DNA of 62,388 nucleotides from a virus (lineage: Duplodnaviria; Caudoviricetes): positions 1 to 62,388 of IMG/VR virus record IMGVR_UViG_3300027985_000703. One strand, written 5' to 3'. The position numbers were made by a program, and so were the translations under genes. A model generated the notes under the pieces. That model was not told the origin of the DNA. It saw nothing but the letters and a program-made list of their open reading frames with translations, and searched no databases. This document shows, piece after piece, positions 1,157-20,343 of this stretch (positions are counted from its first letter, which is position 1; each line of letters opens with the position of its first letter).

Positions 1157-1157
1157 G

Positions 1158-1421: not shown

Positions 1422-1642
1422 GTCGCCTCCTGGGTGAAAAGGAAACGGAGCCGGACACAGCCGGCCTCCTGGTCGATGATCGGTTTGTAGAAGGCCCGGT
1501 CCTGGGTCAGCTCGACCTGGGGCTCGGGCCAGTGGTGGAGGTAGTTGCCGATGCCCTGGGCGGACAGCGCATCACACGCCGCCCGGACAACCGCGCCATA
1601 GTCTTGCGACTGCAGAAGGTGCCGGGCGACGGGGATCTGCAT
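1418..1642 (-). CDS. hypothetical protein (74 aa)
   Basis: TGATG/GTGA coupling with both neighbours. Confidence 0.65.
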   Translation of the reverse strand: MQIPVARHLLQSQDYGAVVRAACDALSAQGIGNYLHHWPEPQVELTQDRAFYKPIIDQEAGCVRLRFLFTQEAT

Positions 1643-2301
1643 CAGGCACCCCGACCCATTTCGCTGTCGACCACCTGCTTGAACAGATAGTCCTTGGCCT
1701 GCTGCGCTGCCGGCAGCTGCTCGAAGGGGACGATGCACGGGTGCTCTTTCTTCTCCGCACTCTTCTCCGGGCCATACACCCACCCTTCGCGCTGCTTCTG
1801 CGCCAACCAGGAACGATGCGATGCGTCCGGGCCGGCGTCAGGGTTGGCCATGTGGAACTCCACGCCCTTGATGGCGGATACACGCTGCCACTCCGGGGCG
1901 TCTTCCCACGCCAATTGAGAGAAGTCACCGAGCGCCCGGCAGTAAGTCCGGTTCATCTCGTGGCACTTCTTGGCGAGGGCCAGGACATCCACTACCGCAC
2001 CGCTCATCAACCGGTAGGCTTCCAGGGCCCACAGCTTCTTGAAGCTGTTCTCGTAGGAGATGGTGCGGCCAATTTCCTCCCGCCAGTTGGCCGGGTCGAT
2101 GCACACCGAGGGGTCGCCCAGCGCCACGAAGCCGTTGTCCATGCGGATACCGCAGAACATCATTTTCTGGCCGGCGATTTCGACGGTCTGGTAGTCAACC
2201 TGAGTGATGCGGCTTTCGATCAGCTCCTTGGATACCCGCTTGCCAGTGCAGCCGAGGTCCGCGCACATCCGTTCGATTTTGTCGTTGTGGGTGCTGGTCA
2301 T
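1642..2301 (-). CDS. N4 gp49/Sf6 gp66-family domain fused to RyR domain
   Basis: N-half: CGIRMDNGFVALG-SVCIDPANW-EIGR-LWALEAYRL; C-half: HRSWLAQKQREGWVYGPEKSAEKKEHPCIVPFEQLP. Confidence 0.8.
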   Translation of the reverse strand: MTSTHNDKIERMCADLGCTGKRVSKELIESRITQVDYQTVEIAGQKMMFCGIRMDNGFVALGDPSVCIDPANWREEIGRTISYENSFKKLWALEAYRLMSGAVVDVLALAKKCHEMNRTYCRALGDFSQLAWEDAPEWQRVSAIKGVEFHMANPDAGPDASHRSWLAQKQREGWVYGPEKSAEKKEHPCIVPFEQLPAAQQAKDYLFKQVVDSEMGRGA

Positions 2302-5482: not shown

Positions 5483-5522
5483 TCTCAACCCGATATAGAG
5501 TAAAACTGCAAGCAGTATATAA

Positions 5523-5533
5523 CAGTAACACTG
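5523..5533. promoter_or_regulatory. palindromic operator-like site CAGT-N3-ACTG upstream of portal (variant at 5498-5508)
   Basis: CAGTAACACTG in terL-portal gap next to a minus-strand -10-like element. Confidence 0.75.
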
Positions 5534-5545
5534 GATAAAACAGCG

Positions 5546-7255
5546 TCACGCGGACATAGCCGAGCGTTTCTTGGACCCGGCCTTGACGAAGCGGTCCAGC
5601 TTGTCCATGAAGGACTTTTTGACCACCTGCTTCTGGTTCACGATGCCAAACTGCATCAGCATCTGGCCGATCCACGCCAGCGCGTCCACCTGGTCGTCGT
5701 GTTTGCCCATGGGGAACGTCAGCAGTTCTGCGATCAACGCCTCGACCCACAACGCGCCACGGGGGAAGAACACCTTGCCCTGCTCCATACGACCCTGGAT
5801 GGGTCGGGCGCGGGTCTGTTTGTCCTTGCCCCGGGTGCGCAGCTTCTCGTAGGGGAGGTGCAGCTTGGTTTCCTCGATCCGTTTCAGCAGGAACGGCTCC
5901 AGGGTCATGTCGATGTGGCCGGTTTCGACGCCGAATATCTCCGGGTTCCACCGCTTCTGCAGCTCGAACATTTTGTCGATGATGCCCATGGAGTTCCAGC
6001 GCCCACGGTGCAGGTCCAGCAGGTAGATATTCTGCTGCCGGTCCACGCCCACGACCAGGAACACTGAAAAGTCGTTCGCCTCCGACTGGCCGATGGCCAA
6101 GTCCGCCGCCGCGTAGACCCGCATCTCGCCCAGGGGCGGGGTGGTGTCGTAGTAGCGGATCATGTTCTTGGTGAAGTAGTCACCGTCCTGGGACACCGGG
6201 TTCTGCTGGTACAGCGCCTCCCAGTCTCGCGGCAGCATGGTCCGTTTGATACGGTTCAGCGCCGGCAACGGGTACCGGGCGGTGTGCAGCGCCTCGCCCT
6301 GCTTCCGGTATTCCTCGTCATGCACGGCGATGGCCGGGTAGCGGACCACTTCCCAGCGGTCGGCGTCCTCGGGCCACACGCCGGAGTCGGCCATCTCCCG
6401 TTCGGCCTCTTTCATGACCTCGAGCAGCCAGCCGGACAGGTCGTCCTCATGCCAACGGGTCTGGATGACGAGCACACCGCCGCCGGGTGCCAGTCGGGTG
6501 TAGAAGGTGGACGAGTACCAGTCCTTCACCTTCTGCCGGGTGGTCTCCGACTCGGCTTCCTCGCGGTCTTTTACCGGGTCGTCGATGATGCCGAGGTGCG
6601 CGCCCCGGCCGGTGATCGGGCCCTGCACACCGGCAGCCGTAAAACCGCCGCCTTCGGTGGTCAACCACTTCTCAACCGCCTTCGACTGCTTCGAGAGCCG
6701 GGTTTTGAACACCGTCTGGTACTTTTCCAGCTCCATCATGTCCCGAACCTTGCGCGAGAAGTCCTCGGCCAGGCCGCCGGAGTAGGAACAGGCGATGACT
6801 TCGTGCTTCGGGTTGCGCCCCAAGTACCATCCGGGGAAGGTTTTGGAGCCGATTTCCGATTTCCCGTGCCGCGGGGGCATGAAAATCATCAGTCGGGGCG
6901 ATTCCTTGCGCTCGATGGCCTCGGCAAACCGTTCCAGGCGGGCGCAAATGTCCGCATGCACCCAACCAGGGTCATAGTCGGGGTTCATGCGCTTGATGAA
7001 CGGCAGCAACCGGCGACGTGCCAGTACCCGCTCGGCCAATTCCTGCTTGATGGACGCCTGCAGGTCGAACGCCGTCTGTTCTTCCTGGACGATGCGCTCT
7101 TTCTCCGCCGCGATATTTACCTGGTCGACCGGCAGCGCGTCCTGGTACACCGCCACGCCTTGCTGGATGGCGCATTTCGAGCACAAACCCTCGCTGTAGT
7201 AGAGGCGGGCAGGGTGGGTGCGGCCACAGGACTCGCAAAAGAAGGTCTCACTCAC
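5546..7255 (-). CDS. terL: terminase large subunit
   Basis: Walker A MPPRHGKS, ITGRGAHLGIIDDP Walker B, QTRWHEDDL, C-terminal HDDQVDA nuclease motif; GTG start 7255 with GGAGG. Confidence 0.95.
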   Translation of the reverse strand: MSETFFCESCGRTHPARLYYSEGLCSKCAIQQGVAVYQDALPVDQVNIAAEKERIVQEEQTAFDLQASIKQELAERVLARRRLLPFIKRMNPDYDPGWVHADICARLERFAEAIERKESPRLMIFMPPRHGKSEIGSKTFPGWYLGRNPKHEVIACSYSGGLAEDFSRKVRDMMELEKYQTVFKTRLSKQSKAVEKWLTTEGGGFTAAGVQGPITGRGAHLGIIDDPVKDREEAESETTRQKVKDWYSSTFYTRLAPGGGVLVIQTRWHEDDLSGWLLEVMKEAEREMADSGVWPEDADRWEVVRYPAIAVHDEEYRKQGEALHTARYPLPALNRIKRTMLPRDWEALYQQNPVSQDGDYFTKNMIRYYDTTPPLGEMRVYAAADLAIGQSEANDFSVFLVVGVDRQQNIYLLDLHRGRWNSMGIIDKMFELQKRWNPEIFGVETGHIDMTLEPFLLKRIEETKLHLPYEKLRTRGKDKQTRARPIQGRMEQGKVFFPRGALWVEALIAELLTFPMGKHDDQVDALAWIGQMLMQFGIVNQKQVVKKSFMDKLDRFVKAGSKKRSAMSA

Positions 7256-7748
7256 CCGGAACCTCCACATACTCGCTCGGGGCGAGGGATATGGTCTGCC
7301 CGGTCATGCGCAACAGGTCTTCGTCGCTCATCCCCTCCAGCTGGCCGCGGCTGGTGACCTGGACCTCCACCTTCTCGGGGCTGGCGAGGCCGTGCAGCTT
7401 GACCAGCGAGTCCACCGCTTTGATTTCCTCGGTGGCCGTGGCGGCTTTGGCGTGCGCCTCCAGGTACAGCACCGTCGCGTCGTTGCGGGTGAACTCGATG
7501 GCGCCGGCGGCGATGGCTGTCTGGCGTGACATCTCCCGGAAGTAGGCCAGGGCGTCCTGGACCTCGGGCATTCGGGACAGGTCCACCACTGCCCGCTGGG
7601 GGGTGCTGTACCCGGCAGCCCGGGCGGCGGCCAGGGGGTTGAGCCCACGGGTCCGGTTCAGGACGTAGGCTTCTTCTTGCGAGGTGAGGCGACGGATGCC
7701 CAGCCCCGCATAGTGGGCCTTCATCACGTCCGGGGTGAGATCATCCAT
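7248..7748 (-). CDS. terS: terminase small subunit
   Basis: Upstream of terL; LTSQEEAYV...AAARAAGYS HTH signature. Confidence 0.85.
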   Translation of the reverse strand: MDDLTPDVMKAHYAGLGIRRLTSQEEAYVLNRTRGLNPLAAARAAGYSTPQRAVVDLSRMPEVQDALAYFREMSRQTAIAAGAIEFTRNDATVLYLEAHAKAATATEEIKAVDSLVKLHGLASPEKVEVQVTSRGQLEGMSDEDLLRMTGQTISLAPSEYVEVPGE

Positions 7749-7760
7749 AGGCGTCGTATC

Positions 7761-7771
7761 CAGTAGCACTG
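7761..7771. promoter_or_regulatory. operator-like palindrome upstream of terS
   Basis: CAGTAGCACTG, overlapping a CTGTATC/GATACAG inverted repeat. Confidence 0.7.
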
Positions 7772-8073
7772 TATCTGACAGGATACAGGACGGCTACAAG
7801 TCGAGCAATGAATGGCGTGGGAAAAGGGACTGGGGCAAAATTTGAAAAATTTTTTACAGGGCACTCGCTTTCAAAGGGGGGTGCCCTGTTGCTTTTGTTC
7901 AGGGATAGGGGTCAAACGATACCGTTGAGGGATAGGGGATACTTGTTGGGGGTCGAGGGCTGGTATATGGGTGTCGCCTGTGGAGGGCGCGCCCGGTTGC
8001 TTTCGAGTTTGGTTTCGGCTCCCCAACTCTCGAGCGTTGAACCTACTTAGGAGTCCCATTAAGGAGTAACACC

Positions 8074-8460
8074 ATGGAAGTCATCGACTACATCGCCAAC
8101 CTGACCTGGACGCTGGCCGTACTGCTGGCAGTAGCAGCCACCATCACCCTGCCTGCATTCATTGCAGCATGGGTAGCCCATGCCGTAGCACCGTGGGTGC
8201 AGCGCACACTGCGCACGCTGCGTCGTGCCCAGCGCCAACGCCGGCATGAACGCCTGATGGCGCAGTTCCAAGAGCGAGAGGCATACCTGCATCAGCGCAT
8301 AGCCGCGCTGCGCCTGGAGGGGCAGTTGCTGCGCGTGGAGATTGAGCACCAGCAACGTGTGCGCCAATGGTTCGAGCCTGTGGACATCACATTCAAGGGC
8401 GAGAACACCCAACCGTCACTGGCAGCCATGCCCGTGGCCGACGACAAAATCGACGTGTAA
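8074..8460 (+). CDS. hypothetical membrane-anchored coiled-coil protein (first early gene)
   Basis: TAAGGAG RBS; N-terminal hydrophobic helix followed by Arg-rich coil. Confidence 0.8.
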   Translation: MEVIDYIANLTWTLAVLLAVAATITLPAFIAAWVAHAVAPWVQRTLRTLRRAQRQRRHERLMAQFQEREAYLHQRIAALRLEGQLLRVEIEHQQRVRQWFEPVDITFKGENTQPSLAAMPVADDKIDV

Positions 8461-8471
8461 GGAGTAACACC

Positions 8472-8666
8472 ATGCGTTTAATCATCAAGCTAAGCGTCGT
8501 AACAGTGTGCGGTGGCTTCACCATGCACACCAACAAGGAGCTGTTAGTAGATGCGTCCGTGGTCACCACCTACAAGAGTGGTGACATGAAGATAGGGCGC
8601 GGCAAGGGGGCCATGACCTACATGGCCAAGGAAATAGTCCAAGTGATCCACGTAGATAAGGAGTAG
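8472..8666 (+). CDS. hypothetical protein (64 aa)
   Basis: TAAGGAGTAACACCATG start context. Confidence 0.75.
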   Translation: MRLIIKLSVVTVCGGFTMHTNKELLVDASVVTTYKSGDMKIGRGKGAMTYMAKEIVQVIHVDKE

Positions 8667-8670
8667 CAAC

Positions 8671-8940
8671 ATGAGCAATCGCGAACTGGCCCAGTTAGTG
8701 GCCTCCACCAACACATTCAAGGACGAGCTGGAGAGCCAGCAGTTCGTCGCCCTCGGCACTGTGGGGGAGTGGGAGCCACTGGTATCAGGTGTAGAGGACC
8801 TGTTAGAGCAGCAGGAGTTCGACACCGAGGAAGATTTGGACTACTGGCACGAGCTGGCCGAGGTCATGGCCAACGCCGAGTCAGTAGAGGAAGAAGCCGA
8901 AGACGACAGCGACGACCTTGCTGCCATCTTCGGCCTGTAA
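8671..8940 (+). CDS. highly acidic small protein, possible DNA mimic
   Basis: TAAGGAG RBS; 26 D/E versus 2 K/R in 89 aa. Confidence 0.8.
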   Translation: MSNRELAQLVASTNTFKDELESQQFVALGTVGEWEPLVSGVEDLLEQQEFDTEEDLDYWHELAEVMANAESVEEEAEDDSDDLAAIFGL

Positions 8941-9004
8941 CACAAGTCGCTTCACCAATCGGGGGTGGGCCAACACCCCCACATCGAACACTAGGAGAAA
9001 CACC

Positions 9005-10390
9005 ATGAACACTAACACTCAAACCAAAGTAGAGCAACTGGCCAGCAACCTGCGCGCCCTGAGCGCAGAGCGCACCATCACCCAAACCCCGACCTTCTCC
9101 GAGGTCGTGGTGCCGGAAATCAATCTGGGCTTGTTTGCCCGGACCAACGTCGCGGCCATGGCCAAGGAGGTCAGCCACGCCATGCTCGCCATGCGCGGGG
9201 CGTCCGACCGTTGGAACCGGGACATCAGCGTCCTGCCGGCGCTGCTGGAAGAATCCAGAGAGTGGTGGGTGGAGCACACCCGCGAGCGCGTGGCGGCCTG
9301 CGCCCAGGAAGCCGCAAAGGCCCTGGACCACAAAGGCATGCTGCGGGTGTGGGCCCGGATGCTGGACCAGTTGGCCCTCGAGTACAACACGTTCTGCAAG
9401 AAGCAGGGCATGGTGCTTGAGGGGCTGCGTCATCCCAAGGGTTGGCACACCTGGGACCGTGAGAACGGCCAGGGGGTGGAGTTGGAGCTGAACAGCTTCA
9501 TCGTTCTCACCCTCAAGACGCCCACCAGCTGGACGCGCAAGGCGTTCACCAAGGCGGAGTTGGTCGACTTCATGGTCGGCCGGGGTGAATACGACACCGC
9601 TACCCGGTTCAACCGCGAGGACAACAAGTCCTTGGCGGACCGCTACCCGGTGCGGCTGCACATGGCCGGCCTGCGCGACTTCTTCCTCGATACAGAGGAA
9701 GGCAAGGCCGCGTGGCTGAGCGTGTACAACTCCCCGTTCACAAAGCAACGTCGCAAGGCGTTGATGGAGCAGGATTGGGTGCTGACCAATCCGCCCCGCC
9801 GTTTGTGTGGTGTCGATTCAGACGCCAAGAACGCCTGGGACAAGGCAGCGGAGGCTTTCCCCGAGGGCAAGCGCGGTGCGCCACGCAATGGCGAACTGCA
9901 CCACCTGCTGGGGGCGCTCAACCGCCAGTTCGACTTCGGTGCGGCGCTGCGTGAGCGTTCACTGAACCGGGAGCTGGAGCAGATGATGGCTGCCCAGCGC
10001 GCACTGCACACCGGCATGGCCGATGGCGAGCACGATTGGGAGCTGGGCCGGGATGATTTCCTGGGCACCCAGCACCCGGGCGCCATTGAGCTGCGCACCA
10101 AGTATGAGGACCAGGAGCTGTTCCACGCGCTGGTGCAGGAAGTGCTTCGCAAGGCCAACCTGGCCTTCGAGCCGGTGCATGGCGAGTTGGCGTTCCAATG
10201 GATCGTCAACGAGGCAGAGGGCACCTACACCAAGGTCACGGACAAGAACAAGGCTCGCGCCTTGAGCTACGCCGTGTGGCAGGCCAAGAACGACGCTCGC
10301 AAGGCGGCGGAATGGGAGGAACACCAGACGCTCACCCTGGACAACATCCGGGAGGCAATGGAACGTAACTACATCGACCTGCCGGAATAA
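9005..10390 (+). CDS. hypothetical early protein (461 aa)
   Basis: TAGGAG RBS before ATG 9005; typical codon bias; no recognised motif. Confidence 0.85.
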   Translation: MNTNTQTKVEQLASNLRALSAERTITQTPTFSEVVVPEINLGLFARTNVAAMAKEVSHAMLAMRGASDRWNRDISVLPALLEESREWWVEHTRERVAACAQEAAKALDHKGMLRVWARMLDQLALEYNTFCKKQGMVLEGLRHPKGWHTWDRENGQGVELELNSFIVLTLKTPTSWTRKAFTKAELVDFMVGRGEYDTATRFNREDNKSLADRYPVRLHMAGLRDFFLDTEEGKAAWLSVYNSPFTKQRRKALMEQDWVLTNPPRRLCGVDSDAKNAWDKAAEAFPEGKRGAPRNGELHHLLGALNRQFDFGAALRERSLNRELEQMMAAQRALHTGMADGEHDWELGRDDFLGTQHPGAIELRTKYEDQELFHALVQEVLRKANLAFEPVHGELAFQWIVNEAEGTYTKVTDKNKARALSYAVWQAKNDARKAAEWEEHQTLTLDNIREAMERNYIDLPE

Positions 10391-10392
10391 GC

Positions 10393-10440
10393 AGGGCCAT
10401 ACTCAGGGTCGCCTTCGGGCGGCCCTCATGGATGGCCTTC
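10393..10440 (+). promoter_or_regulatory. extended hairpin with C(UUCG)G loop (terminator or RNA processing site)
   Basis: AGGGTCGCC-TTCG-GGCGGCCCT inside an outer GGCCAT/ATGGCC stem; no U-tract. Confidence 0.55.
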
Positions 10441-10465
10441 ATCCACCAACCAAGGAGTAAACAAC

Positions 10466-10879
10466 ATGAGTGATTTCGACGCCCTGCTCGATGACAGCAT
10501 CGAGAACGAGGCCTTCGGGGAGGAAACCAACCCGCTGGCGGAGCTGCTGCAACAGCCTGTAGTGGCTAAGGCCAAGCGCCGGATCGTGGCATTCAGCCGC
10601 GAGTATTTTGCCTGGCTGAAAGAGATGGCCAAGCCCCGCAAGGCCGTCGCAGTGCTAAAGGCCGTGCTCACTGAGCGCGAGGCCAAGGAGCAATGCCCGT
10701 GCTGTGGTGGCACCGGCGAGTATGTGGGTGCGGCTTACACCACCCGTTGCGCCCGTTGCAAGGGCAAGGGCTACCTGTTCCCGGCCGACATCATGGCCCA
10801 TCGCAAGTGGGAGGACGCCCGCGCTGCCGGCTTACCGCGTGTCCGGGATGACTTTGGCGCGGCCTTCAACTTCGCCTAA
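10466..10879 (+). CDS. protein with DnaJ-type zinc finger
   Basis: CPCCGGTG...CARCKGKG; AAGGAG RBS. Confidence 0.8.
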   Translation: MSDFDALLDDSIENEAFGEETNPLAELLQQPVVAKAKRRIVAFSREYFAWLKEMAKPRKAVAVLKAVLTEREAKEQCPCCGGTGEYVGAAYTTRCARCKGKGYLFPADIMAHRKWEDARAAGLPRVRDDFGAAFNFA

Positions 10880-10941
10880 CCGAAGGCCAATCACCCTCCT
10901 ATCAACCTCTCGCCGCTGTAACGCCTTCTGAGTTCTTTTTA

Positions 10942-10952
10942 CAGTGAGACTG
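10942..10952. promoter_or_regulatory. operator-like palindrome
   Basis: CAGTGAGACTG, intergenic. Confidence 0.65.
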
Positions 10953-11090
10953 CACACGCATTCGACAGCAACCATGCGGTATTCTTCTACCTGACCCACA
11001 CGGGATGGCCCACCAGTCTGTGTTCCCGTTAGCACTGAAGAGCACCCGCTTCGGGGTGTGCGAGTGCGGCCGACCCGCGGTGGTACGCAG

Positions 11091-11245
11091 CGGTGCGGTG
11101 CGGTGCGGTGCGGTGCGTGGATGATGGTTGGTGGATGGGGGTTGGTGGATGATGGATGGAGGGAGCTGGAAGGGGTTGGGGGATGGGCGGTGGATGGAGG
11201 TCGATGGATGTTGGTCGTTGGTCGTTGGATGGAGGGTGGTGGTTG
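11091..11245 (+). repeat. (CGGTG)5 followed by G-rich, C-poor TGGA/TGGT low-complexity tract
   Basis: Directly visible. Confidence 0.9.
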
Positions 11246-11368
11246 ATGAATGAGGTGTATGGGTTAGTGGCTCGGGCGCGAGTGGCCTGGGTCGAGGGGC
11301 ACCGGGCGCTGGCTGAGCAGTACTGGACCCGTGCCAAGCAACGGTTGGTAGCTATTCAAGGATGGTGA
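11246..11368 (+). CDS. hypothetical protein (40 aa)
   Basis: GGAGG upstream of ATG 11246. Confidence 0.5.
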   Translation: MNEVYGLVARARVAWVEGHRALAEQYWTRAKQRLVAIQGW

Positions 11369-11371
11369 GCC

Positions 11372-11626
11372 ATGAACAACTGGCAAATATTGTTAGACGA
11401 GCTGGCGATGGACCAGCTATTTGACCTGCGCCAACAGACCGGGGACGCGGAGTCCTACGGCTTGGCCGTAGCCTGCGTACAGCGGGGCTATGTCGGGGTG
11501 CCCGCGCACCGGGCTCTCGAAATGCTGGCGGACAACCGCTGGCTCAAGATTATTGAGTCCTGGTCGTGTGACCGGGGCTCAATGGCGCCGAACCGGGGTG
11601 ATGCCCGGCGAGGCACATGGCTGTGA
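11372..11626 (+). CDS. hypothetical protein (84 aa)
   Basis: ATG 3 nt after previous stop; plausible composition. Confidence 0.6.
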   Translation: MNNWQILLDELAMDQLFDLRQQTGDAESYGLAVACVQRGYVGVPAHRALEMLADNRWLKIIESWSCDRGSMAPNRGDARRGTWL

Positions 11627-11922
11627 TGGCCAATGGAGCGCAGGAAGGGAACGGGGAACAGTGGTAAGTGAGGGAGGGCCTATGGTCGAGCCGCCGCCGT
11701 TATAGAACGGGCAACACCTGATGGTGCAGTCATGATGCACCCCCCGAGTCCACCATGGTGTGGAGCTGGCAGTTGTCCACCAGTCAGGGTTACTGAATAC
11801 CAACGGCAAGGGGAGCCCGTCACGGGGCCTGTAACCCGTGACCCCCGGCACATGAGAGTGCAGGCTGGTCGTGCCGAGGCGGCCATGAATCCTCGGCAGC
11901 TATTCAAGGACGGAGGTCCACC

Positions 11923-12123
11923 ATGAAAGTCAAACGCACCAGCTACAAGAACCCGTGGTGGATAGCCGTGGATACCACCGGGACCATCGTCGGTGGCGGG
12001 GTGACACCGGCCAAGGCACGCCGTTGGGGCGAAGGCCATGTGGCCACGGTCAGTGCAGCTGCGGCCAACCGTCGCTTGCTCGAGGCCGGGTTATACCCAA
12101 CCGAGTGGCAAATCCCGTTCTAG
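11923..12123 (+). CDS. hypothetical protein (66 aa)
   Basis: GGAGGT RBS. Confidence 0.7.
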   Translation: MKVKRTSYKNPWWIAVDTTGTIVGGGVTPAKARRWGEGHVATVSAAAANRRLLEAGLYPTEWQIPF

Positions 12124-12203
12124 GGCCTCGATTGAGTGGTCTTGACAAAGGTCCGTGGATAGTATCTAACGATGGTGCCACATGGAGATGGTCGAGGGTC
12201 GAG

Positions 12204-12607
12204 ATGCGGGACATGTGGGACAAAACATAGGACTCGTACCGTATCGGTCCCGCATTGTACCGCATTCCGCCCACATTCCTGAACCTGAGTCCCATTTCCA
12301 AGTGGCACCTACATGAGTCTGCTAAGTGGCTGATTTACCAAGGGTTTTGGGAGGGTAACAGCAACCGAAAATGCTCTCTGTACCGATAGTCCCAGATGTA
12401 CCGGTATTTTTTTCAGTTTGGCCTGAGTTAGCACTTTTGATTTTCGATTTTCATTTTCCAGCCGATGCCGAAAAAATGTGGGAATGTGGGACATCCGGTA
12501 CAGAGTGTCCTAAGTCCCTGTTCCATCTACCTTTTTCGACTGTACCGCATTCCTGAAAAAGCGGTACAGATGCGGTTCACGTCCCACTTGTCCCGCTTGT
12601 CCCATAT
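12204..12607. repeat. iteron-like repeat cluster, candidate replication origin
   Basis: About 15 or more degenerate TGT(C/A)CC(A/G)CA copies in both orientations around a T-rich core; imperfect inverted repeat 12376-12414/12470-12505. Confidence 0.7.
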
Positions 12608-12712
12608 CTACCGTCGCTCGGCCACCAACAAAATTTCATGCAACTTTATTCGTGGACAGGGCACAGATATTCCTGTACTACTGGACGCCGCTTTCCACAG
12701 GGGGACTAGGGT

Positions 12713-13078
12713 ATGCTCGACAAGGACCTGCGCCGGTCATGGACCGACGAAATGAACGCCACGCTGCTGGCCGAGTACGGGGTGACACCCAACGCGGAGC
12801 TGGCGGCCAAGCTCGGGAAATCGCAGAAGTCGATGCGCAACCACATCGCTCGGCTGCGTCGCATCAGCGGCATTTCGTTCCCACCCATCCCGCCGCTGGT
12901 ACCCAAACCAGAACCAGAACCGGTGCCCGTCACCCCAGCCCCGGTGCCCGTTGCCGGCGACCCGGTCCACCTGCTGGCGAAGGAGTTCGCCCGTTGGCAG
13001 GTAACGGTGGCCGAGATGCAGCAACACATCGACCGGTTGACTGATGAGCTCCGGTCTCTCAAGGAGGAAGGCAAATGA
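12713..13078 (+). CDS. HTH DNA-binding protein with Pro-rich linker and coiled coil
   Basis: WTDEMNATL...NAELAAKLGKSQKSMRNHIARL. Confidence 0.75.
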   Translation: MLDKDLRRSWTDEMNATLLAEYGVTPNAELAAKLGKSQKSMRNHIARLRRISGISFPPIPPLVPKPEPEPVPVTPAPVPVAGDPVHLLAKEFARWQVTVAEMQQHIDRLTDELRSLKEEGK

Positions 13079-13326
13079 TACTGATGCACAGCGCGTTCAA
13101 CGCCGCCGGCCAACGGGTCGGCGTCATGTTGTCCCTCGCCGGTAGGAACGTGAACCTGGGCGGTGACTTTCTGTCCCGCCCCGGGATACGCGATTTCGTC
13201 GCCAGCCGCCCGGCCCGCTACTGGGTGACCGAATTCCGGGACGCGACCCGCAAGGTAGCCGACTGGAAAGACGTGATGCGTGGCCTGCGTCAGGCGGTCC
13301 GGTTCCAGCGGGCGATTCTGAAATGA
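13075..13326 (+). CDS. hypothetical protein
   Basis: ATGA coupling, AGGAGG RBS. Confidence 0.7.
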   Translation: MILMHSAFNAAGQRVGVMLSLAGRNVNLGGDFLSRPGIRDFVASRPARYWVTEFRDATRKVADWKDVMRGLRQAVRFQRAILK

Positions 13327-13508
13327 GCGCCCGTAAACCCTACGCCGACGACTGGCAGTCGCTCGGTGATGGTGTGGAGTACAGCCCCCACCTGAAACTG
13401 TACTGGTGCAAGGGCCGGGTATACGACGAGCTGTCGGCCATGCACAACGGCATCATCGGCCCTGGTGCCCAGCTGCGCCGGATAATCGCGGAGGACCGGC
13501 AATGTTAA
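13323..13508 (+). CDS. hypothetical protein
   Basis: ATGA coupling. Confidence 0.6.
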   Translation: MSARKPYADDWQSLGDGVEYSPHLKLYWCKGRVYDELSAMHNGIIGPGAQLRRIIAEDRQC

Positions 13509-13840
13509 TCAACCGACAGTGGTTGCAGGACCGCAAGGCCTGCGAGCCGGGAGTGGAATGGTTCCTCGAGCAGCAACGCATATTGATGGAGCCGGAGGAC
13601 GTGGAGGCGGACAAGCCGCTCGAGGACATGCTGGTGCTGCGGGCGCTGAGCATGGACCTGTACTGGGCCTCTTTCAACAACATCGACGAGGTGCGGACCA
13701 TCCGCGACTACTGGAAATGGTTCAGCTTGAACCTGGCCGTCGCCTACACCGCCGAGGTCCAGCAGCTGCAGGCCCGGGTAGCGGACCTGGAAGGTGAGGT
13801 GGCCGCCCAGCGGGCGTTCCTGGAAGATTTCGAGGGGTAG
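13502..13840 (+). CDS. WLx4ACx2Gx2WF-family paralogue 1
   Basis: MLINRQWLQDRKACEPGVEWF; GGAGG RBS. Confidence 0.85.
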   Translation: MLINRQWLQDRKACEPGVEWFLEQQRILMEPEDVEADKPLEDMLVLRALSMDLYWASFNNIDEVRTIRDYWKWFSLNLAVAYTAEVQQLQARVADLEGEVAAQRAFLEDFEG

Positions 13841-13843
13841 TGT

Positions 13844-14128
13844 ATGTGGCTTACTGAACAGTGGTTGGTAGCCAACTGGGCCTGCGACGCTGGCATTGCA
13901 TGGTTCAACGACAGCCTGCGCCGCCGGACCCGTGACGAAGACAAAGCCTCGGTGGCCATGGTCACCGTTTGGTTGCGGGTGGACATGAAGCAGGCGTACC
14001 AGGACCGCGACTTCGATAAGGCCGCGCACCTGATGGGCTACCTGGCCTGGCTGTGTCAAAGGCTGGCCGAGCAAAACAGCCGCCAATCCAAGGAGCAGGC
14101 GGACAAGGAGGTGCAAGATGCAGATTGA
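13844..14128 (+). CDS. WLx4ACx2Gx2WF-family paralogue 2
   Basis: MWLTEQWLVANWACDAGIAWF...GYLAWL. Confidence 0.85.
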   Translation: MWLTEQWLVANWACDAGIAWFNDSLRRRTRDEDKASVAMVTVWLRVDMKQAYQDRDFDKAAHLMGYLAWLCQRLAEQNSRQSKEQADKEVQDAD

Positions 14129-14426
14129 CGAACACTGGCTGCGCGTAAGGAACGCCTGCCTTGATGGACAAGGCTGGTTCCAGAAGGAGTTTGGCAAATA
14201 TATAGAGGCCACGGACCGCGGCCCCACCGTGGAGGATGTGACCTGCGCCCTGAGCGAGGCGATCACCAACGCCTTCGACCCAGAGTGGCAGAACGCGGAA
14301 GGCGCCCGGGTGCTGGGCTACCTGGAGTGGCTGGCCGACCGCCTGGCCGACGACCTGGTGAAAGCCAAGGCGGACATCGCCGCGCTGCAGGCCGAGCTGG
14401 CCCAATTCACCGAAGGGGGTGAGTGA
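14118..14426 (+). CDS. WLx4ACx2Gx2WF-family paralogue 3
   Basis: MQIDEHWLRVRNACLDGQGWF...GYLEWL; AAGGAGGT RBS. Confidence 0.85.
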   Translation: MQIDEHWLRVRNACLDGQGWFQKEFGKYIEATDRGPTVEDVTCALSEAITNAFDPEWQNAEGARVLGYLEWLADRLADDLVKAKADIAALQAELAQFTEGGE

Positions 14427-14731
14427 TGATCGCCATCGACTTGTTATGGCTGCGCCAGCGCCATGCCTGCCTGGAAGGTCAGCGGTGGTTCATCGGCGCA
14501 GACAAACAGTACAGCATCACGCCCGGCCAGCCGGTGCCGACCATGATAGTCATGGGCTGGTTAAAGAGCGACATCCGCGCAGCGGCCTTCAACGGGGAAC
14601 AGACCGCCGTAGTTAACCTGACCAGCTATGTGGACTGGCTGATGATTCACGTCCTGTGCGAGTGCAGCCGGCAGGAGAAGATCGTCCACGAGCTGGAACG
14701 CAAACTCAAAGCCATGGAGGGCCGCCCATGA
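14426..14731 (+). CDS. WLx4ACx2Gx2WF-family paralogue 4
   Basis: MIAIDLLWLRQRHACLEGQRWF...SYVDWL. Confidence 0.85.
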   Translation: MIAIDLLWLRQRHACLEGQRWFIGADKQYSITPGQPVPTMIVMGWLKSDIRAAAFNGEQTAVVNLTSYVDWLMIHVLCECSRQEKIVHELERKLKAMEGRP

Positions 14732-15072
14732 ACATCAACCTGCAATGGCTCCAGGAGCACCGAGCCTGCCCCGAGGGCCGGGCCTGGTTCATCCACACCT
14801 GCCGCGCCCATGGTCGAGACCACAACAGCGACGTGCCCTTGGAGCTGGTCACCGGCTGGCTGCGCGTCGCCATCGCCAAAGCGTCCCGGGCCCAGCGGCC
14901 GATAAGCGTGTGGGGACTGGCCGGCTACCTGGAATGGCTGTGCGATACCCTGGCTCAGGAAGCGAAAGCCAACAAGCAACTGCGCTGGCCCGAGGGGCTG
15001 ATCACCGCGGACTTTGCCGAACTGGAAGCCCGTGTCACTACCATGCCAAAAGGAGAGACCCCATGCGAATAA
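14728..15072 (+). CDS. WLx4ACx2Gx2WF-family paralogue 5
   Basis: MNINLQWLQEHRACPEGRAWF...GYLEWL; GGAGG RBS. Confidence 0.85.
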   Translation: MNINLQWLQEHRACPEGRAWFIHTCRAHGRDHNSDVPLELVTGWLRVAIAKASRAQRPISVWGLAGYLEWLCDTLAQEAKANKQLRWPEGLITADFAELEARVTTMPKGETPCE

Positions 15073-15383
15073 CGATGAAATGGCTCGAGCGTAACAGCGC
15101 CTGCTACAACGGCAAGCACTGGTTCATAAGCAACTTCCCGCAACACGAGACCTTGCCCCCGGAACACTGCGATGTGGTGCGCAAGCTCGACGAACAAAGC
15201 GATTCGGCCCGGGCCGGAGATCATGTACCTACGGCCGTAATTTTGGACAGCTACATCCTCTGGATGGCGATCAACCTGGGCGATGAGGCCACGCGCCAGC
15301 AATACGATAACGGGGCCTTGCAGCAGCGCATCAACGACCTGCGCAACCAGCTGCAAGCCGCGGGTATGGAGCCGTGCGAATGA
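15063..15383 (+). CDS. WLx4ACx2Gx2WF-family paralogue 6
   Basis: MRITMKWLERNSACYNGKHWF...SYILWM; AAGGAG RBS. Confidence 0.85.
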   Translation: MRITMKWLERNSACYNGKHWFISNFPQHETLPPEHCDVVRKLDEQSDSARAGDHVPTAVILDSYILWMAINLGDEATRQQYDNGALQQRINDLRNQLQAAGMEPCE

Positions 15384-15532
15384 ACCTGCTGACTCAAATC
15401 ACCTGGGAGGACCTGAAAACCGCGCTGCTGCTGGTGTTCCTGGCCATGGTGTCCTGTTCCGGCGCGGTGCTGCTGCTGGGCCTGCGCATCAAACACGTCC
15501 GTGACAGGAGGGAACGTGACCGGAGTAAATGA
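15380..15532 (+). CDS. small membrane protein (50 aa, not in ORF track)
   Basis: MNLLTQITWEDLKTALLLVFLAMVSCSGAVLLLGLRIKHVRDRRERDRSK; ATGA coupling. Confidence 0.65.
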   Translation: MNLLTQITWEDLKTALLLVFLAMVSCSGAVLLLGLRIKHVRDRRERDRSK

Positions 15533-16019
15533 TTTCTGGACAGTCTCTCGCATAGAGACCATCAAGCGTGAGACCGGATACCTGCAGGATGCCGAACTGG
15601 CCAAGGCCATCGGCGTGAGCAAGGGAGCCCTGCGCACCAAACAGTACGAGCTGGGGTTGTTATTGCGCCTGCCGAAGCGACCGCTGGACGCATACCACCG
15701 CTACGAGTACAGCACCAAGGTGTTGCTGGACAAGGGCTACCTGAAACACCTGGAGCCAATGCCCTTCACCGCCGAGGGCCCCTGGTCCACCTACGACCTG
15801 CGCCGGACACAGTATTTCTACGGCCTGGTGACGGTGGAGCGCCTGGCCAAGGCCCTGGGCCGCTCGCCCGATGCCGTGCGCGCCAAGGTGCATGACATGA
15901 ACTGGGACATCGGCAAGAGCTTCGAGTACCGCCGCAACGCCCGCGGGGTGCCGAACTGGTTGCGCATCTTCAATGACATGCGTACCGCCACCATCCAACT
16001 GCAACAGGAGGTTGCATGA
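15516..16019 (+). CDS. protein with two HTH-like repeats
   Basis: DAELAKAIGVSKGALRTK and VERLAKALGRSPDAVRAK; AGGAGG RBS before GTG. Confidence 0.75.
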   Translation: MTGVNDFWTVSRIETIKRETGYLQDAELAKAIGVSKGALRTKQYELGLLLRLPKRPLDAYHRYEYSTKVLLDKGYLKHLEPMPFTAEGPWSTYDLRRTQYFYGLVTVERLAKALGRSPDAVRAKVHDMNWDIGKSFEYRRNARGVPNWLRIFNDMRTATIQLQQEVA

Positions 16020-17017
16020 AAACCGAACCGTTCGACCTGGATAAGGCGCTCAAGGGCCACCCCCTCATCACCAACGCCGGCGAGAAAGCGGTCAACTTCA
16101 GTCCACGGATCCCAGGCCGCTGCACCCTCCCGGGCTACGCCTTCGCGGCCGTCGTAAACGGAGTGTACCGAACCTACACCGACAAAGGGGTGTACCACCG
16201 ACCCAACCCGAACGGCCCCAACGACCTGCTACTGGACGTAAGCGAGGTCCACCCGTTCAAGGTCGGGGATGTTGTGCGCCCGACCAAGGGCAGCACCCCG
16301 GCCGAGTACCTGGGTAAGCAACCGCTCGTCCAGGTTGTCAGTACCGACCGCGAAACCTTCCGCGGCCGCGTGAACGGCGTTGAGCGCCTGTTCCGCTACA
16401 CAGGCTGCGCGCACCTGAACGACGGCGACTGGGAGTTGAGCACCCCGAAACCGGCCCCGATGCCGGCACCGCCGACCCACGCACCGGCACCGCCGACCCA
16501 CGCAGTGTTCGACCCGGTGCAGGCGCTGAATGGTCACCCGCTGATCCTCAGTAGCGGGGACGAGGTAATCAATTTCAAGCGCCGGCGCTGGACCCACCCG
16601 GACGACGACTTCCCGTACAAGGGAGAGTTCACGAAGGCCGACGACACCGTGGTCAAGCTGCTGTTCACCCGCCACGGGGTATCCAACACAAATGGGGCTC
16701 ACTTGCGGATGGACATGACCCGGCCGTGGGTTGCCCCGTTCGACCTGGACAAGGCGCTGGCGGGCCACCCGCTGGTGACGCGGGACGGCCGCCCAGTGTC
16801 CAATTTCCGCGAGCGCAAGACGGCACCCGCCGGGACGACGTACCCGTTCCTGGCTGATGTACCGTGCAAAGGTCACGAGCAAGACAAGGCCGAAGAAGCC
16901 TACACAGCCAAGGGCGAATACTGCGTGGACGGGGGTTTTGACGGCCGGACCAGCCGCGGCCGCGACCTGTTGCTGGACATCCGCACGCTGTACCGGAAGA
17001 AAGTTTGTAAACGCTGA
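16016..17017 (+). CDS. protein with three FDLDKALxGHPL repeats
   Basis: Three internal repeats plus an FKVGDVVR module; AGGAGGT RBS. Confidence 0.8.
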   Translation: MKTEPFDLDKALKGHPLITNAGEKAVNFSPRIPGRCTLPGYAFAAVVNGVYRTYTDKGVYHRPNPNGPNDLLLDVSEVHPFKVGDVVRPTKGSTPAEYLGKQPLVQVVSTDRETFRGRVNGVERLFRYTGCAHLNDGDWELSTPKPAPMPAPPTHAPAPPTHAVFDPVQALNGHPLILSSGDEVINFKRRRWTHPDDDFPYKGEFTKADDTVVKLLFTRHGVSNTNGAHLRMDMTRPWVAPFDLDKALAGHPLVTRDGRPVSNFRERKTAPAGTTYPFLADVPCKGHEQDKAEEAYTAKGEYCVDGGFDGRTSRGRDLLLDIRTLYRKKVCKR

Positions 17018-17035
17018 TTGTTGTTGAGTGTGAAG

Positions 17036-17073
17036 CCAGTTCCCCCGGACCGCACCCCGGCCGGGGGCTTTTT
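17036..17073 (+). terminator. intrinsic terminator
   Basis: CCCCCGG...CCGGGGG followed by CTTTTT. Confidence 0.7.
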
Positions 17074-17093
17074 ACCGCCACTAGGAGCCATGA

Positions 17094-17465
17094 ATGAACC
17101 CCATCCTACCGCACACCGCGCAAGTTGACCTGGACGACCAGGCCCGCACCAAGGAACTGTTAGCCCGTTGCGCCAAAGCCGCCAACCTGCTGTACGACCC
17201 GGAACACGGCCTGGCCTCCAAGGACGGGCTGGCCTGGGAGCCGTGGAACCCGCTGGAGGACGACGACCAGGCCCAGGCGCTCGCCATCACCTTCGGGTTG
17301 GAGATGGCGCTGTTCGCCAAGGTGCGCGCCCTGATTGGGCCGGACCAGTACATGATGCTGGAGGCGTGTGTCACCGGCCGCGACCAGCTCGAAGTAACCC
17401 GGACCCTGCTGGTCTACGGGACCATCCAACTGGCCGAAGAAAAGCGTCAAGGAGCACTGTCATGA
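17094..17465 (+). CDS. conserved phage protein (WNPLxDD motif)
   Basis: WEPWNPLEDDDQAQALA; TAGGAG RBS. Confidence 0.75.
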   Translation: MNPILPHTAQVDLDDQARTKELLARCAKAANLLYDPEHGLASKDGLAWEPWNPLEDDDQAQALAITFGLEMALFAKVRALIGPDQYMMLEACVTGRDQLEVTRTLLVYGTIQLAEEKRQGALS

Positions 17466-17731
17466 AGAAACTGTCCGCCAAGCAATTCCTGAACGAGGAA
17501 CTGCGCCACCGCCTGCGCCACATGCGCGAAGACCTGGGGCTGTCCCGGCCGAAGATGGCCGAGCTGTTAGACCTGCCAGCGACCACGCTCAAGAACTATG
17601 AGCTGGGCTACCGCGAAACGTCCGCGCTGGTACTGCTGGCGGTGCTCAACCACGACGACGCCAGCATCCGCGCCTGGGGCGAGTACCTGACCAAGGTCGA
17701 CGCGCCGGTGCCGAAGGTGGGGGGCAACTGA
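17462..17731 (+). CDS. XRE-family HTH regulator
   Basis: LRHMREDLGLSRPKMAELLDLPATTLKNYELGYR. Confidence 0.85.
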   Translation: MKKLSAKQFLNEELRHRLRHMREDLGLSRPKMAELLDLPATTLKNYELGYRETSALVLLAVLNHDDASIRAWGEYLTKVDAPVPKVGGN

Positions 17732-18018
17732 TGCGATACGACAACATCGAAACCGCCAAAATGTGGACCCTGAACACGGGGCATGTGTCCCGTGACGAAG
17801 CCGCCATGCTGGACGACGCCAATTGCACCATCAAAGCCATGGACAGCGACTACGGGTGGTTGATTTACACCCACCAGGGGCTTGGCGAGGAAGAACTGGT
17901 GGAGTACCCGAATGTGATAGCCATCATGCGCGCCGCCGTAGACGCCGGCATCGAGTGGCTGCGCTTCGACCGCGACGCCGAGCTGTACCCAGAACACTTC
18001 CCGACATTCGACTGGTAG
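17731..18018 (+). CDS. conserved hypothetical (LNTGHVS...YGW...WLRFDRDA)
   Basis: Motif pattern resembling DUF5983-like proteins; TGATG coupling. Confidence 0.7.
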   Translation: MRYDNIETAKMWTLNTGHVSRDEAAMLDDANCTIKAMDSDYGWLIYTHQGLGEEELVEYPNVIAIMRAAVDAGIEWLRFDRDAELYPEHFPTFDW

Positions 18019-18029
18019 GAGGGCAACTG

Positions 18030-18347
18030 ATGGAGCTCAAACACTACCGCAACGGTCGCTGGTACAAAGTCCGCCCCACGGCGGCCACCGCCAAAGGCGT
18101 GCATGACCTGCTGCGCCGGGCGCTGAAAGCCCAGCTGCGCAACGCCCGCGCCAACCTGCAGACGCTCCGGTCCGTGAACAACCATTGCGCCACCGAGAAC
18201 CGTGAGCTGCGCCACCGCTGCAGCTGCCAGGCCACCACCATCGCCGCGCTGCTGGAGTTCAAGAAAGCCGTGGCGGAGATGATGGACCTCAAGGTCCACG
18301 ACGACGACCAGAAGGTGCTGAAAAAGCTGCGGAGGAACGTGCTGTGA
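18030..18347 (+). CDS. hypothetical coiled-coil protein
   Basis: AGGAGG RBS before ATG 18030. Confidence 0.7.
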   Translation: MELKHYRNGRWYKVRPTAATAKGVHDLLRRALKAQLRNARANLQTLRSVNNHCATENRELRHRCSCQATTIAALLEFKKAVAEMMDLKVHDDDQKVLKKLRRNVL

Positions 18348-18520
18348 CCCGAAATTACAGTAAGGGTGAATTCGTCACCCTGCACCGGGACGCCACCGAT
18401 GTGCAGAAAGCCCTGAACCAGTGGCGGCACCAGTACGCCATGGAGATCATCCACACCCGGTCCACTGACGGCGGCTTTATCCACATGTTGCTGTTCCGTG
18501 AGCCGCTGCCCAAGGAGTGA
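18344..18520 (+). CDS. hypothetical protein (58 aa, not in ORF track)
   Basis: GTGA coupling, GGAGG RBS; fills the gap exactly. Confidence 0.6.
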   Translation: MTRNYSKGEFVTLHRDATDVQKALNQWRHQYAMEIIHTRSTDGGFIHMLLFREPLPKE

Positions 18521-18524
18521 TGAA

Positions 18525-18770
18525 ATGAGCGCCCGTTTGAGTGAACGCCAAATCATAGTCGTCGATGAGTTCGACGGCTTTACCGAGGTCGCGCTGGACA
18601 TTTCCAGAACCGAAGCCGAGCAGATAGCCAAGGAACAGGGCTGGCATATCGAAACGGTGAACTGGGGCGATGGCACGGTAGAAACCGACGCCTTCCGCGA
18701 CCCGGACGACCAAAACAGTCCGCTGCTGATCTGCGTAGATGGCTGCCCGGCCTCCTTTTACAGTCAATAG
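18525..18770 (+). CDS. acidic hypothetical protein
   Basis: AAGGAG RBS. Confidence 0.7.
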   Translation: MSARLSERQIIVVDEFDGFTEVALDISRTEAEQIAKEQGWHIETVNWGDGTVETDAFRDPDDQNSPLLICVDGCPASFYSQ

Positions 18771-18777
18771 GTGACAC

Positions 18778-19812
18778 ATGGACAACCCCAACATAGCCGA
18801 CTTGTTAGTGGCATTGGTCAATGCCTGGAACACGCACAGCGAGGACTTCGACGCCGCGCTGGAAGAACTGGACACCCTGCGGGCCCAGCCCAAGCCCGAC
18901 CCCTGGGCCGGTGCCCGCGAAAAGGCGGCCCATGCCGCCACCCAGGCCGAATTGACCGCGGCCAAGACCCGCATCACGCAGCTGGAACTCGAAGTAGACG
19001 CCCTGCGCACCTGCCATGCCAGCGACATGCAGCGTATGAACGCGGCCAACCAGACACTGCAGACCGAGCTGGACAAAGTGCGCGGTGACTGGGCCGACAG
19101 CCGGGAAGCCCTGGCCGAAGTCCGGGAGCGGCTGGAGGCGGAATGTGCCGAGCACACGCGCAGCCTGAGCACCCTGAGCTTCGCCCGCAAGGAGTTGCGC
19201 ACGGCCCTGGCCGAGAGCGACACCCTGCGCAAGGAGGCCAAGCGCCTACGGGAGCAGGCCAAACGCAACAAGGACTCCATCGACAAGTCCCAGGCCCTCA
19301 TCAAGCGCCTGGAAGCCCAGGTGAAGGTCGCCAGCAACCGCGACTACGACGAGCTGGCCGGCCGCTATCAGCACGCCATCCAGACCCTGAAATCGAAGAA
19401 GGCGACCCAAACCTACCTGGGGGCCGTGGGCATCTTCCACAAGGGCGATCACCATGCGGTCACCTGGCCGCAGCTGATGACCCTCGAGAACCAGAAGGGC
19501 GAACGCTTCAACCAACGGCCGCTGCTGTACATGCACCAGAGCGGGCGAGGGGCGCTGCTGACCCTGGACCCGGACGACCGGACCCTGACCATGGCCAAGG
19601 CACCTGCCGGCGGGCTCAAGCCGCCAAAAGAGCTGCTGGAATTTGCCGGCGAGTGGCTGCACCGGGTCAACATCGAGCAGGGCGGGCAGATCAAGCCCCT
19701 GGACCTCGAGTGCCGCAACTACAACAAGGACCGGGCCGATGCGCTGGCCAGCAGCAACCCGGGGCTGGTGCAGGAGGTCAAGAATGCCTGTGCGAAAGCG
19801 AACGCCGCTTAG
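18778..19812 (+). CDS. long coiled-coil protein with globular C-terminal domain
   Basis: 344 aa, heptad-rich N-terminal two thirds. Confidence 0.8.
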   Translation: MDNPNIADLLVALVNAWNTHSEDFDAALEELDTLRAQPKPDPWAGAREKAAHAATQAELTAAKTRITQLELEVDALRTCHASDMQRMNAANQTLQTELDKVRGDWADSREALAEVRERLEAECAEHTRSLSTLSFARKELRTALAESDTLRKEAKRLREQAKRNKDSIDKSQALIKRLEAQVKVASNRDYDELAGRYQHAIQTLKSKKATQTYLGAVGIFHKGDHHAVTWPQLMTLENQKGERFNQRPLLYMHQSGRGALLTLDPDDRTLTMAKAPAGGLKPPKELLEFAGEWLHRVNIEQGGQIKPLDLECRNYNKDRADALASSNPGLVQEVKNACAKANAA

Positions 19813-20017
19813 CGACTGGCTGGACACACCGACCAAGATCGTCCTGCGGCAACTGTGGCGCGACGGTGTGCCCGGCCCGGAACTGGCACGCAAGTTCGAC
19901 CTGCCGATCCGGATAGTGCATCGCCTGTGCGCCGGCATCACCCAGGACACGGTCAAGCGCCAGGCCTACATCGACAACCAGGAACGGCACCGGCTGGTGC
20001 AGGGGGACGCAAAATGA
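19784..20017 (+). CDS. small HTH-like protein
   Basis: GVPGPELARKFDLPIRIVHRLC; AGGAGGT RBS. Confidence 0.7.
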   Translation: MPVRKRTPLSDWLDTPTKIVLRQLWRDGVPGPELARKFDLPIRIVHRLCAGITQDTVKRQAYIDNQERHRLVQGDAK

Positions 20018-20343
20018 CGACCAAGGAAAGGCTGCTGGCCATCTGGTACGGCTACGAAAACCAGATACCGGGTTTTCGACAGTGCTTAGGGCTGTGCTCG
20101 AACCTGATAGGGGCAACCGACGAAAACGATCTGCCGGACTTCTGGCTGGAACGCCAGAGCCAATGCTGGGGTGAACACTCAGACCGCAAATTCACACCGG
20201 TGCCGCACCCGACGGAAGCCGGGGCGGCCGCATCCAGGATTGCATACCACGACCACCACAACAAATACACGGGCGAGTACGGGCAATTGCGCCGCGAGCT
20301 GGCCTACTTCCTGGCCCACGAACTGATTGCCGAGGGCCGCTGA
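20014..20343 (+). CDS. hypothetical protein
   Basis: ATGA coupling; GLCSN...W...PVP...YTGEYGxLRRELA pattern seen in small phage proteins. Confidence 0.7.
   Translation: MTTKERLLAIWYGYENQIPGFRQCLGLCSNLIGATDENDLPDFWLERQSQCWGEHSDRKFTPVPHPTEAGAAASRIAYHDHHNKYTGEYGQLRRELAYFLAHELIAEGR

Follow-up and report, generated by a model that had tools for sequence, protein, structure and literature searches.

Six tandem paralogues, probably short-form YdhT_N proteins, in an uncultured podovirus-like phage

The closest described counterparts of the genes considered here are proteins that carry the YdhT_N domain (PF27195, according to the ESM Atlas labels), which is named after Escherichia coli YdhT (b1669), a protein of uncharacterised function with a repeat-rich C-terminal region that is encoded in the chromosomal ydhYVWXUT cluster. 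The accessible parts of the literature on YdhT, and on Imm5 together with phages, describe no function for the N-terminal domain and mention ydhT in tables only. In phages the domain is found joined to an Imm5_like domain (PF27195 plus PF21805). A more distant point of comparison is provided by the polyimmunity loci of polymorphic toxin systems, which, according to the accessible part of Zhang et al. (2012, PMC3482391), are tandem sets of small immunity-type genes. Here we analyze IMG/VR virus record IMGVR_UViG_3300027985_000703 (62,388 bp; complete, CheckV 99), the whole of which we call the window, and describe within it an array of six consecutive + strand open reading frames (ORFs) of 94 to 114 amino acids (aa) at 13502-15383, p1 to p6, which is very likely a tandem expansion of a short-form YdhT_N protein. 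What appears to be new is the six-copy short-form architecture; the YdhT_N head family is already catalogued.

The six ORFs are true paralogues. Chance is excluded because the six-frame translation of the window contains the core AC..G..WF six times, always inside the array, against a mean of 0.025 in shuffled sequences (n = 200; maximum 1), and because hidden Markov models (HMMs) built with one member left out recovered each omitted member at E values of 1.3e-11 to 1.6e-20. Those models found no further match at E <= 10 among the 898 stop-to-stop ORFs of the window, and a profile search of the whole genome returned exactly six members. All six proteins carry the exact head [IL]x3WLx4ACx2Gx2WF and a second motif, Yx2W[LFM], which starts at residues 64 to 70, 43 to 49 residues past WF. 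Eleven alignment columns are invariant (M1, W7, L8, A13, C14, G17, W20, F21, V45, Y70 and W73 in p1 numbering), and the ten residues besides the start Met are all apolar or small, with no invariant polar residue among them. Pairwise protein identity across the six is 21 to 34%; by region it is highest in the head (46%) and lowest in the middle (18%), with 30% in the YxxW helix and 25% in the tail. DNA similarity between copies is limited to stretches of 40 to 45 nt at 60 to 75% identity beneath the two conserved motifs. With protein identity this low, and DNA identity of that order in the best stretches only, substitutions among the paralogues are presumably saturated. An earlier note on this DNA had given the position, packing and size of the array, the exactly spaced head and the second motif, all of which our check of ORFs and starts reproduced; its statement that the copies share no DNA-level repeat is nearly true, the short stretches under the motifs being the exception. 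The shared scaffold, hypervariable middle, early-region position and old diversification that it proposed are likewise borne out by the alignment, the regional identities and the models. We also observed that p5 and p6 alone share a P-C-E C terminus (15055-15072 and 15366-15383), which gives these two a second common Cys.

The array is compact. Its genes appear to form one translationally coupled block, because each has a purine-rich Shine-Dalgarno-like stretch directly upstream and because adjacent genes lie 3 nt apart or overlap by 1 to 11 nt; the p1 start ATG in turn overlaps the stop of a 61-aa ORF just upstream. When ORFs are naively listed from their first start, p1, p5 and p6 are embedded in ORFs of 144, 138 and 212 aa, in keeping with an earlier remark that three members were hidden in mis-started frames. 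GC content at third codon positions (GC3) is 0.77 to 0.88 in the six proposed frames and matches the DNA polymerase and primase genes, at 0.88 to 0.89. These data bear on the idea that the six duplicates are neutral or in decay, with no separate function for each, which would suit their extreme divergence, with one genome from which to judge. Six intact frames with ribosome-binding sites, eleven invariant positions retained and coding-typical GC3, however, make such decay very hard to credit. The sequence itself is reproduced by an independent assembler's 14,552-nt contig, which has zero differences over 13319-16500 and no joint within the array and may come from the source sample. Two sequencing runs, which may also be the source sample, contain the array in full, together with a small-share run of the same sample, and no RNA run is found among the runs containing the array.

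A profile built from the six proteins (A1) was searched against 1.84 billion representative proteins at E <= 1e-3 and matched 13, six of which are the window's own (one as a 74-aa fragment of p1). A seventh, P0007 (717 aa, six matching stretches), is a low-complexity repeat protein that we set aside as spurious. The remaining six, P0008 to P0013, all begin M-x-I-[TN]-x-x-[WM]-L-x4-A-C-x-[ED]-G-x2-W-F, with E values of ~1e-4 over 1.84e9 proteins for P0008 and P0009 and with matches to both heads of P0011; a second homologue search added P0014 and P0015. Precomputed Pfam annotation places PF27195 on P0008, P0009 and P0014, and PF21805 on P0014 and P0015, whose Imm5_like matches (E = 1.9e-6 and 2.6e-6) are above the Pfam cutoff. 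A profile alignment of A1 with P0015 by hhalign reached 92.9%. In the ESM Atlas, residues 1 to 80 of p5 had 170 features in common with a YdhT_N cluster (feature score, 0.93) and a template modeling (TM) score of 0.63 to a cluster in which every member (100%) has YdhT_N, and whole p3 gave TM scores of only 0.35 to 0.48, with predicted models on both sides of each of these structural comparisons. Sequence profiles, Atlas features and predicted structure together indicate that the array heads probably belong to the YdhT_N family. The earlier note knew of no described function for such an array; that the proteins have no described family must be corrected: the head is probably a Pfam domain that is widespread in phage proteins, although no function has been described for it.

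Other searches were less informative. The six proteins had no match at or above any cutoff in a Pfam model set that lacks PF27195, nothing at a curated or meaningful level in PHROGs, NCBIfam or PADLOC, and no match to the PF21805 Imm5_like model at E <= 1. Profiles A1 and A4 reached E values of only 0.98 and 0.27 against PDB sequences, and a word-based homologue search returned the window's own proteins only in one run and few relatives in another. A [WY]xxW[LT] motif lies ~25 residues past WF in the relatives, as against 43 to 49 residues in the six, and its placement by MAFFT differs between alignments A2 and A4. By eye, E. coli YdhT has a similar N-terminal layout (I-T at residues 3 and 4, WF at ~20, FP-x-GG and W...W-L) but lacks the A-C and the G of the motif, and hence the Cys, all of which the array has. 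E. coli YdhT therefore looks, to judge by its sequence, like a diverged member and a poor reference for the family.

A scan of IMG/VR with the relatives' patterns gave 42 confirmed loci, of which 28 fit the motif and 14 fail its strict form, and 91 stretches matched an exact pattern back-translated from the head, our counts being taken from the 80 listed. Throughout the relatives the YdhT_N head lies at the extreme N terminus. Most viral relatives continue from the head into Imm5_like, and often then into Ala-rich tracts, over a total of 160 to 220 aa; others continue into leucine-rich repeat-like or G-I-K-A-G β-helix-like repeats, ankyrin repeats follow the head in P0011, and Atlas labels add MORN, collagen and bactofilin modules. 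The YdhT_N plus Imm5_like proteins (P0014, P0015 and loci L009 to L130) share with the six a start of M-x-I-T-x-x-W-L-x4-A-C-x2-G-x2-W-F from residue 1 and, after it, a [WY]xxW[L] helix, and both kinds are viral and lie among small same-strand ORFs. They differ in three respects: the relatives run on into Imm5_like (E ~2e-6), where the six have a single amphipathic helix instead; the six have ~20 residues more between WF and YxxW; and the relatives are single-copy, or paired at most, whereas the array has six copies. One head was counted in 27 of the 28 motif-fitting loci (two in L032) and in 79 of 80 among the matches listed (two in L063).

Duplication nevertheless seems to recur in the YdhT_N family, because several other viral or metagenome contigs carry two long-form genes. 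Such YdhT_N/Imm5_like pairs, adjacent or apart, occur in L032 (5432-6100), in L063 (2302-4107), on the one contig that holds both L044 and L046, and in L144. P0011 (349 aa) has two heads, at residues 1 and 221, with ankyrin repeats after each, and looks like a duplicated or read-through pair. In many of the long-form relatives at loci L051 to L130, Imm5_like is followed by low-complexity tracts rich in Ala or in Ala/Tyr.

AlphaFold2 (AF2) models of whole p3 (predicted local distance difference test [pLDDT] score, 86.0) and of its first 80 residues (55-sequence alignment; pLDDT, 88.2) contain the same four helices, at residues 5-10, 15-31/32, 38-52 and 60 onward, with the conserved Val on helix 3 and Cys14 directly before helix 2. 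From these models, the short form would consist of a ~75-residue four-helix YdhT_N-like domain, a hypervariable middle and a long amphipathic helix. Foldseek returned nothing at E <= 0.001 for the p3 models against PDB or for whole p3 against BFVD. Tad1 rows in the fold search stood at E values of 5 to 9 only, and the best VIA Z scores, 6.8 and 6.4, to YmgB (2oxl_B; root mean square deviation, 3.0/3.1; 62 aligned), lie within or below the helical background. A missing fold match is no proof of a new fold.

A two-copy model of p3 scored 0.52, against 0.01 for the best of three controls; in a benchmark, the 0.52 mark was reached by 20 of 30 solved same-chain pairs and by 1 of 23 solved single chains. 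The p3 dimer runs agree in at least 96% of contacts, with partner pLDDT of at least 81. The interface comprises residues 62 to 97 together with residues 37 to 53, where helix 3 acts as a buttress, and residues 2 to 36, the conserved head, are absent from the confident contacts. Because contacts along the C-terminal helix run from residue i to residue i (69, 73, 76, 80, 83, 87, 90 and 94), the modelled p3 homodimer is a parallel zipper. The coiled-coil tail that the earlier note assigned to all six fares unevenly by heptad: consecutive apolar a/d positions number nine in p3 and seven in p1, where the prediction is convincing, five in p5, five in p6 and four in p4, where it is moderate, and three in p2, where it is weak. 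The tails of p5 and p6 are broken by Pro and Gly, and that of p2 is short and polar.

The earlier note had suggested a panel of inhibitors or decoys or, as an alternative, one hetero-oligomer. On the latter view, the six would be subunits of a single hetero-oligomer, joined by C-terminal hetero-coiled coils, with a composite assembly of heads and near-equal amounts ensured by coupling. The six genes do overlap or abut on one strand in one operon, and the modelled interface (helix 3 and tail) coincides with the variable parts of the proteins, as would be expected from co-evolution of partners. The p3 homodimer model, however, passes its controls; the relatives are overwhelmingly single-copy, by the counts given above, so that the fold works without paralogous partners; and the tail of p2 is short and polar. 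We consider a hetero-oligomer unlikely.

The conserved Cys deserves separate consideration. It appears to be the most persistent residue of the wider family, because it is retained in 13 of the 14 loci that fail the strict motif, even where G, W or F has changed, among them 8 of the 9 found with a Cys-free pattern. This retention, its invariance in the six and the modelled position of Cys14 just before helix 2 would all suit a reactive thiol at the N terminus of that helix, serving as a redox switch, a group for covalent capture or an inter-subunit metal ligand, with the head as the active part and the rest of the protein as the source of specificity. Yet no second invariant Cys, His, Asp or Glu is present to complete a catalytic or metal site; the head lies outside the modelled interface, so that the two Cys14 residues are not brought together; E. 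coli YdhT does without the Cys; and burial of a small residue where two helices meet in a tight turn would explain the conservation equally well. We regard a reactive thiol as improbable. The metal-binding or catalytic role once suggested for this residue is thus weakened by its being the lone invariant Cys, by the lack of polar invariants and by the location of the head, while its persistence across the family still speaks in its favor.

The genome that carries the array appears to be that of a ~62-kb, podovirus-like, lytic-type phage. Its - strand encodes the portal, large terminase, major head and internal virion proteins, a 2,459-aa ORF and tail-fibre genes, and its + strand encodes DNA polymerase, primase/helicase, exonuclease, helicase and thymidylate synthase. 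The + strand arm that contains the array begins near 8,070; the array lies ~5.5 kb into it, after a 590-bp non-coding stretch (12124-12712) and three small ORFs, and the polymerase follows 6.4 kb downstream of the array. Compared with isolated phages (Rhizobium RHph_TM3_14A, Pseudomonas KPP25/phiR18 and Aeromonas phiA008), the DNA polymerase reaches no more than 32% identity, and the nearest relative is an IMG/VR provirus record, L007, whose DNA polymerase is 62% identical. L007 has no array-family member at E <= 10. When its positions 1 to 10000 are compared with 8000-20300 of the window, the early arm is unshared and only three ORFs beside the polymerase are conserved, and its region upstream of the polymerase has no ORF in common with 8 to 20 kb of the window. 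The array appears to sit in a fast-turnover accessory region, because L007 lacks both the family and a shared early arm.

The short form itself appears almost unique among the 1.84 billion proteins searched. Its closest outsider, P0008 (133 aa), had no relatives in viral or metagenome contigs. A two-head DNA pattern with a gap of 250 to 280 nt matched eight metagenome and two genome stretches, and none of these ten holds a short-form array, the pattern covering gaps of that length between unaltered motifs. Isolated phages gave no megablast match to 12000-17000, tblastn of p5 gave no match at E <= 1, and a search with P0015 matched one record, Methanosarcina virus MetMV. No second array was seen in these searches.

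The genomic setting also raises the possibility that the six regulate the phage's own programme, as modulators of the host or phage polymerase or of neighbouring helix-turn-helix (HTH)-type proteins, and have no part in counter-defence. The array does lie between ORFs with weak HTH signals and upstream of the replication module. L007, however, has the same replication genes without the family, a single regulatory step would hardly call for six diverged copies, and the proteins have acidic isoelectric points (pI) and no DNA-binding signature. Their pI values, from 4.3 to 7.8, are acidic to neutral and do not suggest DNA binding. We think a regulatory role of this kind unlikely as well.

The reading that we tentatively favor is that the six are a panel of dimeric binders of host factors. 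The array very likely represents a lineage-specific, six-fold tandem expansion of a phage-borne short-form YdhT_N protein in the early or accessory arm. The invariant W, L, A, C, G, W, F, V, Y and W most likely build the core of the four-helix scaffold, because all are apolar or small. The connections between helices 2, 3 and 4, which are hypervariable and ~20 residues longer than in the relatives, would, with the tail, provide a distinct surface for every paralogue, and perhaps a distinct dimer specificity, and the C-terminal amphipathic helix would pair two chains in parallel, as in the p3 model. The proteins would then be non-enzymatic dimers, made early in infection, that bind other proteins stoichiometrically, and would act as accessory host-interaction factors of the immunity or anti-defence kind rather than as core replication or virion parts. 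The six appear to bear no catalytic or DNA-binding signature; a catalytic one seems absent because there is no invariant polar residue and no assigned Pfam, PHROG, NCBIfam or PADLOC family. By analogy, the partner modules found elsewhere in the family, which are binding scaffolds or an immunity-type domain, would fit a binding role.

Several observations weigh against this proposal. The dimer was modelled for one paralogue, p3, and p2, with three consecutive apolar a/d positions, has the tail of a poor zipper. None of the members is linked by genomic association to a defence system or to a target in the host. The near-universal Cys could mean chemistry rather than packing, and the tight coupling of all six fits a hetero-complex equally well. 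The arm with the array is called early from gene order. On the side of family membership, the hhalign match to 49 viral heads (97.8%, E = 7.9e-13) extends over the first 26 columns only and stops before the [WY]xxW helix, and hhalign of the array profile with E. coli YdhT gave 0.6% and no alignment, a value that says little about the family because YdhT itself lacks the AC..G core.

A bolder version of the binder panel treats the YdhT_N head as a Cys-dependent N-terminal "warhead or adaptor" set on many binding modules, and the array as six orthogonal coiled-coil dimers directed at variants of host defence or toxin proteins. We offer it as a doubtful speculation; if it were true, the array would be a phage-side counterpart of the bacterial polyimmunity loci. 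As far as those loci are described in the accessible source, both are tandem sets of small genes, and the family of the array heads is elsewhere fused to a domain named after Imm5. In the array's case, however, we found no toxin gene, secretion marker or Imm5 or Imm5_like domain, and its members are paralogues in the putative early arm of a lytic-type phage, whereas polyimmunity loci are a heterogeneous mix. The resemblance would be conceptual.

YdhT_N heads are frequent in phage genomes, without a known role, and in the array one operon supplies six natural versions of a single scaffold. It is a compact system in which the function of the head, the importance of the conserved Cys and the specificity set by the middle could be addressed. 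Should the six bind host defence or toxin proteins, a large and mostly viral domain family would gain a function, and the array would also exemplify gene-family expansion in a phage accessory region. Its practical value depends on heterologous tests, the array being known from one uncultured phage. The members of the array are listed in Table 1.

Table 1. Coordinates and features of the six array genes in the window
Gene	Position	Strand	Features
p1	13502-13840	+	112 aa; pI 4.3; YdhT_N-like head, variable middle, amphipathic C-terminal helix
p2	13844-14128	+	94 aa; pI 5.1; head and YxxWL helix; tail short, polar, of weak coiled-coil character
p3	14118-14426	+	102 aa; pI 4.3; modelled helices 5-10, 15-32, 38-52 and 60-99; modelled parallel homodimer
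p4	14426-14731	+	101 aa from ATG at 14426 (102 aa from GTG at 14423); pI 7.8
p5	14728-15072	+	114 aa; pI 6.4; tail interrupted by Pro/Gly; residues 1-80 resemble YdhT_N clusters (ESM Atlas)
p6	15063-15383	+	106 aa; pI 5.3; most diverged of the six

The surroundings of the array have features of their own. Weak-to-moderate HTH signals are present in three flanking ORFs, at 12713-13078, 15501-16019 and 17168-17731; the best match is to HTH_31 (5.8e-6, in the ORF at 17168-17731), and the ORF at 15501-16019 matches phrog_323, "transcriptional regulator, D5-like" (1.9e-7). A 333-aa ORF at 16016-17017 has three internal repeats starting F-D-L-D-K-A-L-x-G-H-P-L and has no relative in IMG/VR. Logan contigs lack 3 nt at 16479 and show a joint in this ORF that steps back 473 (16500 to 16028); the number or phase of the repeats may therefore be variable or mis-assembled. 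Directly after p6 comes a 50-aa ORF (15380-15532), the ATG of which shares bases with the p6 stop (ATGA). It contains a single hydrophobic segment of 21 residues and a basic tail, and it probably encodes a small membrane protein that is translated along with the array. The non-coding stretch at 12124-12712, just upstream of the array operon, is lower in GC, contains a promoter-like pair, TTGACA...TAGTAT, near 12141-12170, and has numerous short repeated motifs, some GTCCCAC-like and others GTACCGCATTCC-like, which occur in both orientations.

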